Assembly: GCF_003018235.1 (NCBI RefSeq)
Contig: NZ_CP027438.1
From: Escherichia coli
GTDB taxonomy: Bacteria; Pseudomonadota; Gammaproteobacteria; Enterobacterales; Enterobacteriaceae
Strand: one strand, 5' to 3'
DNA length: 64,000 bases
Shown here: positions 13,350 through 28,306 of the stretch, in pieces
Position numbering within the stretch: the first letter of the stretch is position 1
Layout: each line of letters begins with the position of its first letter
Notes under the pieces: model-generated
Told to the model about the DNA's origin: nothing
Seen by the model: the letters and a program-made list of their open reading frames with translations, nothing else
The model's database searches: none
Translations under genes and position numbers: made by a program

Positions 13350-13559
13350 TTTTACATTTAATCCAGATGAAAATATATATGTGGTGTGGAACAGGCTTCG
13401 GTTGTCGAATAATGATTATTATTTCACAAATTATGAGAGACTTAGGAAGTAATAGAGTCATACCTATAGTTATTGATAATGAGCAATCAAATGTGCTGAC
13501 ATTTGTAGCAACATGTTTATGGTTAGATTTTTATCAGAAATTACGAACAACGCTATAGA

Positions 13560-14700
13560 TAACCTGTAAGTATCCTGCATAATTGTGGTATTCATATTTA
13601 GAGATCATACGGCATAATCAATCTATCAACGAAGGAGATCGCTATGCATAAACCTGTTGTACTGGGCATCAGATCATCGCTGTGATTAAGTCAGTTGAAG
13701 CCAGACGAACCGCTAAAGATGTCTGCCGGAAGGTCGGTATCTCTGAAGCCACCTACTAAACAGATGTTTGCTGACCTGAGTCTGGAGAACCGGGCGCTGA
13801 AAGACGTTATCGAAAAAAGCATTAAAACAAGCCTTTAAGCGTGAGCTGGTCACTCATCTGATAACGACATTCGGACTCAGTATCCGTCAGGCCTGCCGGA
13901 GTCTGAACCTGAGCAGAACGGTTTACCATTACCGCTGTCAACGCCACGATTTTGACCGTCCTGAAAGGTTAGATAAGCACGTTCTACACGGCCTTTTGCC
14001 TGACTGGTTTCTGCGCACAGCAGTGTGATATTGAGGGAGCGCATGACCCTGGCAAACTGAGCTTCACCGGGACCGGTGGTAGCATGCTTATTGTTTACCC
14101 GGAAGACACTGGCTTTGTCGCTGTAGAGGAACATGGGCTTACCATGTTTTCCGATATAGCTACGGGTCGCTTCAAAATAGGTAAATGTGGATTCAGATTT
14201 CACAAACAGCAAGTGCATCAGGCGACTGGTGGCATCGTCAACATAGACAAGAGCTGTACAGGGTCGACCCCGGTTTTCAAACCAGTGGTGGTCACAGCCA
14301 TCAATTTGTATCAGCTCGCCAGCACAAGGCCGCGGTAATGAGGCTGATGAATTTTAGGTGCGCGCTGTCCGCGTGGGGCCAAAATCACGGTATTGCTCCC
14401 TGATTATACTGAGTGCCTGATCTGTCAGTGACGCTGGCAACAGACGGTTACCAGTGCGGCCACGACTCTGGTTGTTCATGCCAAGCGGTCCGAGTTGACG
14501 ATGGCGTTTCAGCAGTCGGCTGCAATGACGTGGTGTAATGCCGAGCATCTCCGCAGCCTGGCCAGGACGCAGATTGCGATCGATGACATCCTGAAGGATT
14601 TTGAGGCGGTTGATTTCTTTCACGTTAAACATCCCGGCGTCATGTATAGCCATAGAAAACTCCTCATCAGGAAAAGTGAGTCGTTGTCTAGACATACAGA
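13560..14700. mobile_element. Nested IS debris: IS3-family orfA fragment and a disrupted rve-type transposase
   Basis: Plus-strand IS3-type OrfA pieces (KDVCRKVGISEATY, LENRALKDVIEK) at about 13620-13870; minus-strand ORFs 13877-14218 and 14354-14695 give an HTH N-terminus and integrase-core fragment in different frames. Confidence 0.45.
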
Positions 14701-20657: not shown

Positions 20658-23102
<2,445 letters not shown>

Positions 23103-23113
<11 letters not shown>

Positions 23114-23915
23114 CTACATGCAGGCCTACCGAGCATCCGGTCTTTTGCCCGACATGGCGAACAATAACGCGGTGCATGTTAACGAAAAAATCATACCGAA
23201 TGTGGCCGCCGGTCTGATAAAAGTTAAACCCCTGGCAGAGCGTTTCACCGGAGAAGGCGCTATTAAGTTCGTCGACGCATCTCAGGAAAAATATGATGTA
23301 ATCATAACCTGTACAGGCTATGAAATGCCTGATTACTTGTTCATTCAGGGATTTGACAGAACACAGCTCTATGAGCACTTTTTCTGGACAGAGGACCCTT
23401 CTCTGGCCGTCATTAATCCCCCGGTGGATACCGCCGGTTTCGGGGCTGCGTTTCCCTATTTTGATATCATCAGCCAGTGGGTAATGAACGTATTCTCCGG
23501 GAAGACTTCCCTTCCGGAAAAAGAAGCTATGCGCAAATGGTGTGCTGAGCACATGGCTTCACTTCATGTTAAGCGATTTTATGACAGCTGGCTGGAAACC
23601 ATCCGGATTGGGTTGCTGTCAGGTCTTCTCCCGGACCCGGCCCGCGACTTTTCCCGATACTGGAACATCATCAGCAGTATGGTCAAACCTGCCTATCTGG
23701 CCACTCCTCCCGCATTTCCGGAGCATGGTATGATGGACAGCCTGTTTGATTTCCGGATCGCCAAAATACGCATACTGTCAGGGCTGGGAAACGATGCTCT
23801 CGGTTATTTACTGAAAAAAGGTGATATCACTGACGCAGAATACCGGGCGGCCCTGGAAATCGATCCCCGGCAGTCGATTTCTGTACACCTGCCGTATTCA
23901 CAGACCTACCTCTGA
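23103..23915 (+). pseudogene. Flavin-dependent monooxygenase-like protein, C-terminal fragment
   Basis: Contains FMO-type motif YDVIITCTGY; lacks the N-terminal FAD/NADPH-binding region. Confidence 0.35.
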
Positions 23916-23920
23916 TAAAA

Positions 23921-23950
23921 AGGGCCAGTAACGGCCCTTTTCTTTTTCAT
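23921..23950. terminator. Bidirectional rho-independent terminator between convergent genes
   Basis: GGGCC-agtaac-GGCCC hairpin flanked by A-run and T-run (aaaagggccagtaacggcccttttcttttt). Confidence 0.5.
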
Positions 23951-24429
23951 AATATTCTGAGCAGTCTTGCCGGGTTTCCTGCATAAATGCCTTTGTTCTC
24001 AATCGGTTTTACCACAACTGAACCCGCACCAATAACAGTTCCGCTGCATATATACGGAGACAGAATAATGGCTCCACTGCCAACAGTAACCGAATCCCCC
24101 AGGGTAATGCTGATCCAGTTATCCGGTGACGGATCTGGTGCTCCTGAACGAAACAGATCGTTGGCGAACGTCACGTTATGACCAATGAAGCAGTTCTCCC
24201 CCAGTGTTACGTTCTCACAAATAAACGTGTGCGACTGTATCCGGCTTCCACTACCAATGACACAGCCTTTCTGTATCTCAACGAAGGGGCCGACAAACAC
24301 GTTGTCCCTGAGTTCACATTCATAAATGTTGACCGGTTTGACAATACGGACATTGGTCCCATAAATCACATCCCGGACAGCACATTCCATAAATTTCATA
24401 CTCACACGTCCTTTAAATACAGATGACAC
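23947..24429 (-). CDS. Hexapeptide-repeat (left-handed beta-helix) acyl/acetyltransferase
   Basis: Repeated [LIV]G-x4 hexapeptides (VIGSGSRI, VTLGENCFIGHNV, ITLGDSVTVGSGAII, VIGAGSVV); 160 aa. Confidence 0.6.
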   Translation of the reverse strand: MSSVFKGRVSMKFMECAVRDVIYGTNVRIVKPVNIYECELRDNVFVGPFVEIQKGCVIGSGSRIQSHTFICENVTLGENCFIGHNVTFANDLFRSGAPDPSPDNWISITLGDSVTVGSGAIILSPYICSGTVIGAGSVVVKPIENKGIYAGNPARLLRIL

Positions 24430-24726
24430 TTGCCGGAATTATACAGCCCAGATTCACTTGCCATGTTTCAGAATAGCTTATAAGCCGCACTTTTACCGAT
24501 ACTCAGCAACAAATCAGGTCTGGATCCACTTCAGCCGGAAACCGGATCTGCGCGGCAGAAAAGACGCAAATAATATGATAATAAACAATACACATAAAAT
24601 CATATCAGATATGATTTTCATCATTAATTATGAAACCATATCTGATATTATTAATAATCAATAACACACAAATCATTCAGGATATGATTTTTACCTGTCA
24701 GAACATTATCAGATGGAGCGTGCAGG

Positions 24727-24987
24727 ATGGATCAGGAAATGACGTTTTCACTCAGCTATGAACAACTGACCCGGTTTGCGGAAAAACGCATCCGGGAATG
24801 CAATCTGGACAGCCAGGGCGTAACTTATCTCTGCGAGTCAGCCAAAGCCGGAGCCGTGCTGATCTTCTGGCATGAACTGGCCATAAATGGCTATACCTCA
24901 ATGAATGCCATAAAGAGACAGGAGATCATTGACGCCGACCATCAGCGCCTCAGAAAGCTCATCTGGCCGGAGGATGACTGGAAATGA
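24727..24987 (+). CDS. Hypothetical protein (86 aa)
   Basis: ORF translationally coupled (ATGA) to the downstream 196-aa ORF; GC-rich module. Confidence 0.3.
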   Translation: MDQEMTFSLSYEQLTRFAEKRIRECNLDSQGVTYLCESAKAGAVLIFWHELAINGYTSMNAIKRQEIIDADHQRLRKLIWPEDDWK

Positions 24988-25574
24988 CTCAGAGCCGCCG
25001 ACCGTCGCCACTGCAGCGGAGAGTGCTGATTGTGCTGGCTGCCCTTGATGAAAAACGGCCAGGCCCCGTGCTGACGCGGGACATAGAGCGGGTGCTGGAG
25101 CGAAGCGGGGAAGCCCCGGTCTACGGGCCAAACCTGCGCGCCTCCTGCCGTCGTCTGGAGGATGCCGGCTGGCTGCGTACCCTGCGCGCTCCGAACCTGC
25201 AGCTGGCAGTGGAGCTGACGGACGCCGGCCGTTCCGTGGCACAGCCTCTGCTGCTGGCAGAACAGGACCGCCTCTGGGCAGAACAGCGTGCGGCAGAAGT
25301 CGTCGTACTGCCGCTGGTCCCGGCAGCAGGTCTGCCCGCAGACGGCACTTCTGCCACTGATCTGGCGGTGCATCTGAACGGCATAACGTATCAGGCCTGC
25401 CGTGGGGATTTTGTGGTGCGTCTCGACGGCAGCACCTGTCTGCAGTTATGGAATAAAGAAGGCAGAGTGGTACGCCGGGAGGGCGATCCGCTGGAAGTGG
25501 CGCAGTGGCTGCAGGCCTGTCACGATGCAGGAATGGAGGTTCGCGTACAGATAAATGAAAGTACCGCTCCGTAA
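24984..25574 (+). CDS. Hypothetical protein with putative winged-helix N-terminus (196 aa)
   Basis: Balanced composition on plus strand (RRVLIVLAALDEK...LTRDIERVLER); the antisense ORF is Pro/Arg-rich junk. Confidence 0.35.
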   Translation: MTQSRRPSPLQRRVLIVLAALDEKRPGPVLTRDIERVLERSGEAPVYGPNLRASCRRLEDAGWLRTLRAPNLQLAVELTDAGRSVAQPLLLAEQDRLWAEQRAAEVVVLPLVPAAGLPADGTSATDLAVHLNGITYQACRGDFVVRLDGSTCLQLWNKEGRVVRREGDPLEVAQWLQACHDAGMEVRVQINESTAP

Positions 25575-25593: not shown

Positions 25594-25941
25594 TTACACA
25601 TCATCCCATGGTGGCAGCCGGTTAACTTTCCTGCGCCACCAGTGGAAAGAGGCCATGCACAGTCCGAACAAAAAACCACCCGTGATACTTATAATAATGG
25701 CCTCACCTGCCACCATTCCTGACGTCCCCCAGTAGATAAACCACATTGCACATCCCCAGGAAATGCCCCATAAGCTCCCCATCAACAGCGTGACCTGCCA
25801 GAACGGCATAAAGGGTAATGGCGGAAGCCGGATACCCAGCCGCCATAGAATACGCAGAAGAGGAGGGGCATAATTGCTCCGCCACATCTTTTTGCTGTCC
25901 ATCAGGGCAATGGCCCGGGCTTTTTTCTGCTCAAAGGTCAC
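25594..25941 (-). CDS. Hypothetical membrane protein (115 aa, two TM segments)
   Basis: Two hydrophobic, Trp/Gly-rich segments; no recognisable family. Confidence 0.3.
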   Translation of the reverse strand: MTFEQKKARAIALMDSKKMWRSNYAPPLLRILWRLGIRLPPLPFMPFWQVTLLMGSLWGISWGCAMWFIYWGTSGMVAGEAIIISITGGFLFGLCMASFHWWRRKVNRLPPWDDV

Positions 25942-26069: not shown

Positions 26070-26405
26070 ATGAACAGGAAATATTATCTTAATAATATGT
26101 GGTGGGGATGGTTTATGGGTGGGTATACTCTGTATATGTCATGAGATTATGAGTTTAAATACAGATTGCTGTTCTGGTGTATTTCTCTCTGCGGAATGGT
26201 TTTGTATCCGGTTGCCAGATGGTGTATTGAAAATACTGCCCTGAAATTTACCCGGCCTCATTTCTGGAATAGCGGTTTTTTTGCTGATACTCCCGGAAAA
26301 ATGGGATTACTTGCGGTTTATACGGGTACTGTTTTCATATTATCTCTTCCGTTAACTCTGATATATATTCTTTCTGTTATCATAAAAAGGCTGTCTGTAA
26401 GATAG
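26070..26405 (+). pseudogene. imm: Colicin Ia/Ib immunity-like gene with in-frame TGA at codon 25
   Basis: ATG 26070 has a strong SD (caGGAGGctggctgATG); in-frame TGA at 26142-26144; frame continues into the hydrophobic ORF 26166-26405; convergent with the colicin gene. Confidence 0.55.
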
Positions 26406-26426: not shown

Positions 26427-28306
26427 TTAAATGCCCCAGAACTTATTCGCTTTTTCCACAAGCGTTTCATCAATCAGAGCACCGGTGACAGCCATCAGTA
26501 AACCATACCCGATAATGCCTAAAGCGCTTCCGGTAAGAATACTGAAGACCAGAGCAACAAGAGCCGTTGCGGCATTACCTGCTATGATGGTTTCTGTTTT
26601 AACAAAAAAAGGACGCCAGTTATCTGTCCGGGCAGCCTTACCAAACTCAGTGATCCAGTCAGCAAAATTTGTAATTTTTCCTGCATATCCCAGTCCGCGA
26701 CTGAACCTGTTCAGATTAGACGATATATCAGACAGCTTCACAGACTCAAGGGCTGCGGCAATCGCTGCACGATCTTTTGCATTAATTTTTTTGTTAATGT
26801 CAGCCCGGTACTTTTCATACGTTTTTAATGCCTCTTCAACATTACGTATTTTCTTCCCTTTAGCCTGCCCGGCCATCTCTCTGGCTAACTGCTCAGCTTT
26901 TGCACCATATTTTTCTGAAACTGATTTCAGGAACTCTGTTGTGAAATTAATTGCGTCTTTCGTTGCCTTCAGTTCATCCTGTTTTCTTTTCTCTTCCGCT
27001 ATCTTCTGATTGATGCCGGCAAGCTGGTTACGGATATTCTCTTTTTCCTTCAACAGGGCATTAAGAGCGTCATTTGCATTCTTTTGCTCATTTGTTCTGG
27101 CACTGAGGTTATTTCTCGCCGAATTTACCGCAGATTCAGCAGAGGTGATTTTATTTCTGGCATCAAGCAATCTTTGCCGTAACTTATCCCATTCAGCAAC
27201 TTCAGCATTATAAATTTTCTTGTCACCTTCCACATCCTCTGTCACCACCGGATTCCGGTCATTCAGAATATTGCGTTATAGTCCAGACCGGAATGGGTCA
27301 GAAGATAATTCAGGTTTGCACGGTTATCAATGACCGCGCTGGTTGTGATTTTTATCGTACCGGCAAATCTCGGATCACCACTCACAACAATAGAATGATT
27401 TGTTGATGAACGCCCCGGGAAATTTTCAGGGGAAACTATCGTTTTGCCGTCAGGCGTGTTTTTCTGTTGCGTCAGCTGTTGTTCAGCTCTGGTTAATGCA
27501 TTACGGGCCGTGTTAAGCGATTCCGTCACCGAACTGAGTTTATTCCGGGCCTCTGAAATGGCCCTGTCATTCCGTGTCTGCTGCCCGAGCAGACGGGCCT
27601 GTTGTGCATCAAGAACGGCAAGGGCTGCCCCGCCATTTTTTTCCAACTCTGACAACCGCGTGTCCAGAATACCTTTTCTGCGCTCGTATTCAGCAAGCAT
27701 ATCAGCGGCCTTCTTGTCTGCGTTCTGCGCATCCTTCTGCCGTTTTTCAGCCTGTTCGATTAACGACCTGGCCTCGCGGGGAGATATACGAAGAGAATCA
27801 GCATCAGCAAACAGCATCCGGCTCTCTGTATGCAGGCGGAGGGCATCATATCCGGCGATTTCAGTACGGAATCCGTATTCTCTCAGCTCTGCCTGCAGGA
27901 GTCTGAACTCCTGTCGTGTAATATCAGCGGTATCTGCGTTTCCGGCACGGAGTGTTTTCAGTGTGTTTTCATCTTTTTCCCTTGCAGCAATCGCCGCAGA
28001 GAGGCGTTTTCCGGCTTCAGTACGTTTATTCTCATTCTCTTTCTGCTGCGCGCTGAGCGTGTTTTTGTACGCTGTGATTTCCTTGTCCCTTTTTTCGATA
28101 TCACTCCGGGTTGGGGAATCATCGACCCACTCGTTTCCACCCCAGATGGTTTTGTTCCCGAAGGAATTCCATGCAGGCGGGGTACCATGAAAGACATCGA
28201 CACGTGGAGGGTTTACATAAATATCAACGGCCATAATTTCATGGCCATCTGAATCATACCCCAGCGATTCTGCACCGGGATTTGTAATACGTACAGGGTC
28301 AGACAT
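26427..28306 (-). pseudogene. cia: Colicin Ia/Ib-type pore-forming colicin, frameshifted between the central and pore-forming domains
   Basis: ORF 27263-28306 gives the N-terminal and central domains; ORF 26427-27248 in another frame gives the channel domain ending ...LVEKANKFWGI; break lies at TATAACGCAATATTCTGA. Confidence 0.75.

Follow-up and report, generated by a model that had tools for sequence, protein, structure and literature searches.

The plasmids R64, ColIb-P9 and pS88 carry two adjacent genes, ydfA and ydeA, which form a "conserved hypothetical" pair. These R64-style names are also applied to pUA1135 (PMC12111858) and pS88 (PMC3438092). In pUA1135, reverse transcription polymerase chain reaction shows a single transcript over ydfA, ydeA, ibfA and a proQ-like gene (PMC12111858); in pS88, transcripts of ydfA and ydeA were both detected (PMC3438092). 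The DNA analysed here (the window) is a stretch of 64,000 nucleotides from Escherichia coli, contig NZ_CP027438.1, and the element in question is a 1.05-kb unit at 24524-25574. Going by its sequence, the unit is this same pair and is uncharacterised rather than undiscovered. The genes are the same and so is their position beside cia/cib-imm or ibfA; there is no essential difference, except that the window copy has a degenerate second palindrome and inactivated colicin Ia and immunity neighbours. We favour, with moderate confidence, the reading that the unit is a self-contained, autoregulated promoter-regulator cassette which is carried as a block and in which YdeA would be an autorepressor.

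Over its full length (100%), the window YdeA shares 95-97% identity with database clusters of 3551-4618 members, and a related cluster (P0027, 88% identical to the window YdeA) carries the name "YdeA protein". YdfA is 93-98% identical to database clusters, and the 93% match bears the name "YdfA protein". Both products thus belong by full-length identity to the families of the R64 nomenclature. Gene order agrees: ydfA precedes and overlaps ydeA, and in IncI/IncF plasmids the two adjoin the colicin I/immunity genes or ibfA. At the DNA level, PLSDB has at least 5000 plasmids with the unit; the matches listed come from Escherichia, Klebsiella, Salmonella, Enterobacter, Citrobacter and other hosts, and are mostly conjugative IncI or IncF plasmids. 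Of 5426 complete E. coli genomes, 2193 (40%) carry the unit, and 96% of the places are plasmid-borne. Both genes are annotated "hypothetical protein" in all records examined. The YdeA protein family is small, with 220 representatives at E <=0.001, many of them fragments, in an exhaustive HMMER scan of 1.84 billion representatives. The pairing is confined to an enterobacterial plasmid clade; more distant YdeA homologues stand alone. Homologues at <=55% YdeA identity mostly have no ydfA (loci L010, L011, L014, L016, L017 and L018); at L015 (YdeA 50%) there is an overlapping upstream open reading frame (ORF) of 82 aa, whose only detectable likeness to YdfA is a short C-terminal motif. A phage origin is rejected, since IMG/VR gave a single matching contig, with a degraded copy.

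A preliminary description of this stretch reported two translationally coupled ORFs of 86 and 196 aa, lying between sugar-modification genes and a colicin locus. The positions are exact, and so is the location: a hexapeptide acyltransferase gene is on one side, and a DUF6404 gene plus colicin Ia and its immunity gene are on the other. The ydfA stop and the ydeA start overlap by 4 nt, ATGA (AAATGACT; also written GGAAATGACT). Such an overlap (1, 4 or 11 nt) is retained in 9/9 other intact-pair loci with coordinates examined, and the Shine-Dalgarno motifs GGAG/GGAGG precede both starts. The same description gave the pair a much higher GC content than its neighbours. With ydeA at 63.8% and ydfA at 50.6%, the label really fits ydeA; the 297-bp upstream intergenic region has 36.4% GC, the adjoining acyltransferase gene 46.4%, ybaA 52.9% and the entire window 42.6%. 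Pairwise ratios of nonsynonymous to synonymous substitution (dN/dS) are 0.16-0.57 for ydfA and ydeA. The one exception is the window/L002 ydfA pair, with a dN/dS of 0.90 at almost no divergence (dS 0.048). Because both are under purifying selection, ydfA and ydeA are taken to be real genes. They are kept together across thousands of plasmids, and neither is a piece of a larger known gene. For YdeA, the idea of a fragment is rejected because many independent family members, 190-213 aa long and of diverse origin, share the conserved ...VQINE as their end. Long forms (300-430 aa) have a C-terminal extension added, and the odd architectures met in the representative search are chimeras made by insertion sequences (IS) or frameshifts.

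Repeats at 24590-24700 had been put forward as a possible operator, and the region bears this out. The AT-rich upstream DNA contains three 17-bp palindromes, O1, O2 and O3 (ATCATA-N5-TATGAT), whose centres are spaced by 36 and 37 bp. The array shows a phylogenetic footprint and lies over a conserved extended -10. O1 with its flanks (24596-24618) is a perfect 11+1+11 palindrome, AAAATCATATC-A-GATATGATTTT. O2 reads ATCATATCTGATATGAT in Klebsiella/Citrobacter copies. The upstream regions of six loci were aligned, their YdfA proteins being 25-93% and their YdeA proteins 61-95% identical. The half-sites ATCAT/ATGAT and the 36/37-bp spacing are invariant in this alignment, and the sequence between palindromes and the 5-bp centres vary. 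Also invariant are the columns ATATGATAA of a lone half-site further upstream (site 0) and TCTGATAT.AT of the predicted -10; TG-N-TATGAT is conserved inside O2. The extended -10 implies a predicted transcription start site near 24658. For pUA1135, BProm predicts a start site 69 bp upstream of the ydfA ATG, which matches the window position (PMC12111858). Between plasmids whose upstream neighbours differ, homology begins at a left boundary block. The block is also found in L016 (YdeA 55%, without ydfA), so it accompanies ydeA genes even there. It has no RNA covariation by RNAalifold, and an RNA element is rejected: the sole Rfam match is a chance microRNA (E 0.38).

The palindrome motif is associated with YdeA-family genes well outside this plasmid group. 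ATCAY-N7-RTGAT, at <=1 mismatch, occurs at 7.5/kb in the 200 bp upstream of such genes and at 0.21/kb elsewhere in the same loci, a difference of ~35-fold. Upstream of the L015 homologue (50% identity) the exact O1 sequence ATCATATCAGATATGAT is present. L016 has two palindromes 36 bp apart directly before its ydeA; L010 (30%) has ATCAC-N7-GTGAT, and L011 (45%) has a cluster of many ATGATT/AATCAT repeats. Since the motif lies upstream of distant homologues in unrelated contexts, it tracks YdeA and not YdfA or the flanking genes. Outside this region, the 64-kb window shows no surplus of operator-like sites; this suits an autoregulator that acts locally rather than a plasmid-wide one, and a global regulon is rejected on the same ground.

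YdeA was modelled with AlphaFold2 from a 17-sequence alignment, with a mean predicted local distance difference test (pLDDT) score of 88.7. The winged-helix-like N-terminus suspected earlier appears in the model as a winged helix-turn-helix (wHTH) at residues 9-78, followed by a long helix at 80-104. The recognition helix would be at about residues 48-60, where N50 and R52 are nearly invariant. The linker differs in length between alleles, and the whole protein ranges over 169-214 aa. The C-terminal beta5-alpha-beta domain is predicted at residues 127-190 and has the family motifs RxDFVxRLDGxTCLQLW and GDPLQVAxWxQxCxxAG..VQINE. A structure search, made with the fused YdfA-YdeA model only, found no solved structural relative of this domain. 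Pfam, NCBIfam, PHROGs and PADLOC were scanned for families; as had been said from the sequence, YdfA and YdeA belong to no recognisable family, with nothing above threshold in Pfam, NCBIfam, PADLOC or PDB sequences. Among the PADLOC-DB v2 models there are zero matches at E <=1 for YdfA, YdeA and the DUF6404 neighbour. Matches treated as sub-threshold noise for YdeA are AbiEi_4 (E 0.025), VpaChn25_0724 (E 0.008) and phrog_19460, a family without assigned function (E 6.5e-7), and the YdeA profile meets just weak MarR chains in PDB (E 0.008-0.4). Coordinates of the features are collected in Table 1.

Table 1. Features of the ydfA-ydeA unit and its convergent neighbour (positions in the 64,000-nt window)
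Feature	Position	Strand	Description
Conserved left boundary block (~60 bp)	24524..24583		Invariant core TCCG-N14-CGGATCTGC, includes GATC; then lone half-site
Site 0, lone right half-site	24573..24582		ATATGATAAT; 36 bp upstream of equivalent O1 half, same phase
O1, operator-like palindrome	24599..24615		ATCATATCAGATATGAT; centre ~-51 from predicted start site
O2, operator-like palindrome	24635..24651		ACCATATCTGATATTAT, degenerate in this plasmid; centre ~-15
Predicted extended -10 of ydfA promoter	24643..24651	+	TG-A-TATTAT here, TG-A-TATGAT in other loci
O3, operator-like palindrome	24672..24688		ATCATTCAGGATATGAT; centre ~+22
ydfA	24727..24987	+	86 aa, acidic (isoelectric point, pI, 5.3), predicted three-helix bundle, hypervariable between plasmids
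ydeA	24984..25574	+	196 aa
ydeA codons 1-104	24984..25295	+	Basic (pI 10.5) winged helix-turn-helix and long helix (predicted)
ydeA codons 105-125	25296..25358	+	Pro/Ala-rich linker, low confidence (pLDDT 56-82)
ydeA codons 126-196 and stop	25359..25574	+	beta5-alpha-beta C-terminal domain (predicted)
ybaA (DUF6404)	25594-25941	-	Pfam E 1.4e-37; phrog_31022; converges on ydeA, 20 bp between stops

In the autoregulated cassette that we favour, the basic N-terminal wHTH of YdeA, probably as a dimer, would bind the 17-bp palindromes ATCAYA-N5-TRTGAT. Their half-sites are 11-12 bp apart and would present adjacent major grooves on one face of the helix. Three palindromes and one half-site, in 36-37-bp phase, would cover the promoter from about -85 to +30. 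Since O2 holds the extended -10, occupancy by YdeA should exclude RNA polymerase, and YdeA would thus repress transcription of ydfA-ydeA and of anything downstream. The fixed phasing, together with the separate C-terminal domain, points to binding that is cooperative and of higher order; the domain probably serves higher-order assembly or partner binding. YdfA would be made in fixed proportion through the stop/start overlap. Being small, acidic and three-helical, it most probably acts as a modulator or effector partner and would not itself bind DNA. In R64-type plasmids the cassette heads a transcript which runs into the phage-exclusion gene ibfA.

Autorepressors of the MarR, HxlR and PadR families are among the nearest known systems. 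YdeA shares their winged helix-turn-helix fold in the AlphaFold2 model. However, no Pfam model of those families reaches threshold, and the MarR models (PF01047/PF12802) are not reported at E <=1. The modelled YdeA also differs from MarR in having no N- and C-terminal dimerisation helices; it has the linker and the beta-rich domain instead. At the level of the locus, the three to four operators in 36-37-bp phase and the coupled upstream partner gene set it apart from all three families. The sequence is thus known and named, and the kind of system would be an ordinary autoregulated winged-helix regulator, which stands out for its prevalence and for how little it has been studied. Its distinctive traits are the unclassified C-terminal domain, the unusual operator phasing and the hypervariable partner gene.

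Several points weigh against an autoregulated cassette. The position of the start site and the binding and repression by YdeA are predictions, and no Pfam DNA-binding family reaches threshold for YdeA. The palindromes are AT-rich and resemble a -10 (TATGAT), so promoter function or a host factor could account for part of their conservation. With 36-37 bp (about 3.5 turns) between sites, neighbouring dimers would be on opposite faces, an unusual arrangement for simple cooperative repression. L008, L017 and L018, the most distant homologues (<=36% identity), have no such palindrome. In copies of the pZH063_1 type (L023:3940-4060), which encode a very abundant 169-aa YdeA allele, a rearrangement has put different sequence in place of all that lies left of O3's right half. 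These copies have neither O1 and O2 nor the predicted promoter, so either the native control region is dispensable or such copies are decaying. The part given to YdfA is conjecture, and the fused AlphaFold model (predicted template modelling score, pTM, 0.45) shows no confident docking of YdfA on the YdeA C-terminal domain.

YdfA itself is modelled as helices 11-23, 31-55 and 61-79 with pLDDT >90. It has no sequence-profile match in PDB, and the best library match is noise (fvmX1, E 0.18). Between the window and loci L020/L021, ydeA is 95-100% identical in DNA, the control region 80-95% and the ydfA core (24790-24910) 50-60%. Likewise, the YdeA proteins of L005 and L004 are 96% identical and the YdfA proteins 41%. 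Between the window and L005 the similarity is placed otherwise: ydfA and the wHTH half of ydeA are alike (80-90%), and the C-terminal half of ydeA is different (32-60%). Judged from these alignments, ydfA is a recombination mosaic that reassorts independently of ydeA, and the C-terminal half of ydeA is swapped independently. YdfA types and types of YdeA C-terminal domain show no fixed combinations, which argues against a tightly co-evolving protein pair. This reassortment of alleles is the sole feature that hints at something beyond routine autoregulation. In the Klebsiella pneumoniae plasmid OW849345.1 (L024:2957-3530), IS26 has cut ydeA after codon 6, and the operators, the promoter and ydfA are intact. 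It follows that ydfA alone is tolerated, although a copy of ydeA may act in trans from elsewhere in that genome. At L015:3756-6751, downstream of the YdeA gene (50%, preceded by the exact O1 sequence) lie genes of 87, 214 and 338 aa, and the 338-aa product has a Peptidase_M41 (FtsH-like) domain without the AAA module. An FtsH ternary system, suggested by the fvmX1 match and this Peptidase_M41 gene, is unsupported; the upstream ORF of L015 is not detectably YdfA-like.

The unit, from about 24524 to the ydeA stop, travels as a block and its flanks vary between plasmids. Upstream neighbours are the acyltransferase gene (in the window), DUF4238, a RES-domain NAD+ phosphorylase, arsR or parDE. Downstream are convergent DUF6404/ybaA and colicin Ia or Ib (the arrangement found here), R64-type ibfA, a 350-aa hypothetical protein with ProQ/FinO, or, in Klebsiella, a 164-aa "DNA-binding protein" with Hha. 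Many of these neighbours are defence or competition genes. An alternative, unlikely but the one that keeps the most weight, is that the cassette acts in conflict, as a regulator of, or sensor for, the phage-exclusion and competition genes around it. YdfA would then be a specificity or decoy subunit, for example an anti-repressor released on phage or plasmid entry, or an anti-defence protein. Such a role would suit the location of the cassette in a variable defence/competition hot-spot of IncI/IncF plasmids, where it lies directly upstream of R64-type ibfA and is co-transcribed with it (PMC12111858). In ColIb-P9 it adjoins DUF4238 and the ColIb ibfA; elsewhere it is near the RES-domain NAD+ phosphorylase, the colicin Ia/Ib genes, or a DpdC-like protein and nuclease after a long-form YdeA. 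A ydfA with 50-60% nucleotide identity where ydeA has 95-100%, and which reassorts freely, is also typical of conflict genes. However, ibfA alone, with its own promoter, restores phage interference, and the phenotype of a whole-operon deletion equals that of an ibfA deletion (PMC12111858). Neither protein matches any PADLOC model, and ydfA is under purifying, not positive, selection overall (dN/dS 0.16-0.49). No same-strand gene follows in the window; since the next gene is convergent at 20 bp, the cassette has no cargo here and would regulate itself alone. Adjacency within a variable region may also be coincidental. In a bolder and marginally less probable version, the pair would be a conflict module and no housekeeping autoregulator: YdeA would silence the hot-spot, and YdfA would be a specificity subunit which detects or counteracts an incoming phage, plasmid or host factor and so releases or tunes the expression of the cassette and of cargo such as ibfA. 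If this were true, the pair would represent a new and very widespread plasmid sensor-regulator family built on a C-terminal fold for which no solved relative was found.

Type II toxin-antitoxin modules of reverse gene order, such as higBA and mqsRA, have a similar layout: a small first gene overlaps a larger, DNA-binding second one, palindromes overlap the promoter, and the setting is a plasmid. In such a module YdfA would be the toxin and YdeA the DNA-binding, autoregulating antitoxin. Besides its two small overlapping genes behind palindromic operators, the pair is found on plasmids next to other toxin-antitoxin pairs (yacAB, relE/parE), and YdeA has a weak sub-threshold match to the AbiEi wHTH (PF13338, E 0.025, 15.1 bits vs a 25-bit cut-off). 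We nevertheless disfavour a toxin-antitoxin module and consider it quite improbable. YdfA has no known toxin fold or family. An antitoxin should not be lost alone, yet in OW849345.1 the promoter and ydfA persist intact though IS26 removed ydeA; in the other direction, YdeA homologues are commonly without any ydfA. The alleles of the two genes reassort rather than co-evolve.

The AbiE system deserves separate mention. The AbiEi antitoxin (PF13338) autoregulates via inverted repeats in its own promoter. Like YdeA it is a protein of some 200 aa in which an N-terminal wHTH is joined to a distinct C-terminal domain, and both are found on mobile elements among phage-defence genes. However, the match of YdeA to AbiEi_4 is below the Pfam cut-off, and the YdeA C-terminal domain retrieved no AbiEi-like structures. 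No AbiEii/DUF1814 nucleotidyltransferase gene adjoins the unit; what lies downstream is convergent DUF6404, ibfA, hypothetical genes, or a DpdC-like gene and a nuclease. The partner here is instead a small helical protein encoded upstream.

The phased array might also serve plasmid maintenance, as a centromere-like site, a site of pairing or incompatibility, or a cryptic iteron origin, with YdeA as its adaptor. Three to four regularly phased sites in an AT-rich stretch beside a wHTH gene would suit this, and the family is almost exclusively plasmid-borne (the 96% of E. coli places and the one IMG/VR contig noted above). It is nonetheless very unlikely: no partition nucleoside triphosphatase or replication gene accompanies the cassette, whose flanks vary, and for replication and partition the host plasmids already have complete IncF/IncI systems. 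Like operators, the sites are inverted repeats lying over the promoter, and copies without most of the array are abundant. Least probable of all is that the palindromes are sites of a host regulator (Fur or another binder of AT-rich DNA) and not of YdeA. In favour of this, the region consists of GATAAT/ATCAT-like hexamers that recall Fur boxes, a Fur box with 16/19 matches is present in the colicin Ia promoter nearby, and the pS88 ydfA transcript changed under iron chelation (0.17-fold; PMC3438092). But this change is a decrease (p 0.119), the opposite of Fur derepression (PMC3438092). The best Fur-box match in the palindrome region, 13/19, scores no higher than those at 31 other window positions, and the motif accompanies YdeA-family genes into unrelated contexts. 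A Fur box is rejected for its poor match and the wrong direction of the iron response.

Some genes on either side of the unit are truncated or look inactivated. IS21 istA/istB (20985-22786) adjoins truncated sugar-modification genes (region 20985-23915), namely a DegT-like aminotransferase fragment at 22802-23113 and a 270-aa ORF at 23103-23915; the hexapeptide acyltransferase gene (23947-24429) is intact and divergent from ydfA. On the other side, the colicin Ia gene (26427-28306, minus strand) is a pseudogene 98% identical to intact cia, in which a 1-nt deletion at nt 1030 gives ORFs of 347 aa and 273 aa. The immunity gene (26070-26405, plus strand) has an in-frame TGA at codon 25, which is W in the intact homologue (MNRKYYLNNMWWGWFMGGYTLYMS*DYEF...). 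In view of the frameshift and the TGA, both halves of the colicin locus look inactivated. The DUF6404 neighbour is not the ibfA/abi gene of ColIb-P9, because the ColIb ibfA (NC_002122 nt 13401-13745) is on the opposite side of ydfA, beyond DUF4238. In two other loci (L003:5439-7845 and L006:5480-10200), the genes after a long-form YdeA of 406-419 aa encode first a DUF6884 protein with a match to PADLOC DpdC (E 2e-43) and then a thermonuclease; the extension of about 220 aa in the long form has no Pfam match. DpdC is an enzyme of 7-deazaguanine DNA modification.

It should be noted that the name YdeA is also used for a chromosomal arabinose exporter of the major facilitator superfamily. The plasmid YdeA, a 196-aa soluble protein with the predicted wHTH, is unrelated to it. 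A 2026 genome-wide association study of IncK2 plasmids (PMC12987596) reads a plasmid "ydeA" as the L-arabinose exporter of this superfamily; the protein behind that match could not be checked. IncK/IncI plasmids carry the 196-aa wHTH YdeA, and a collision of the two names in that study is possible. If its "ydeA" is the wHTH gene, the exporter interpretation would be wrong.

Carriers of the ydfA-ydeA unit include epidemic IncI1, IncF and Klebsiella IncFIB(K) plasmids, among them resistance and virulence plasmids. Because the cassette is at the head of the R64-type ibfA transcript, it may determine how strongly plasmid-borne defence genes are expressed.

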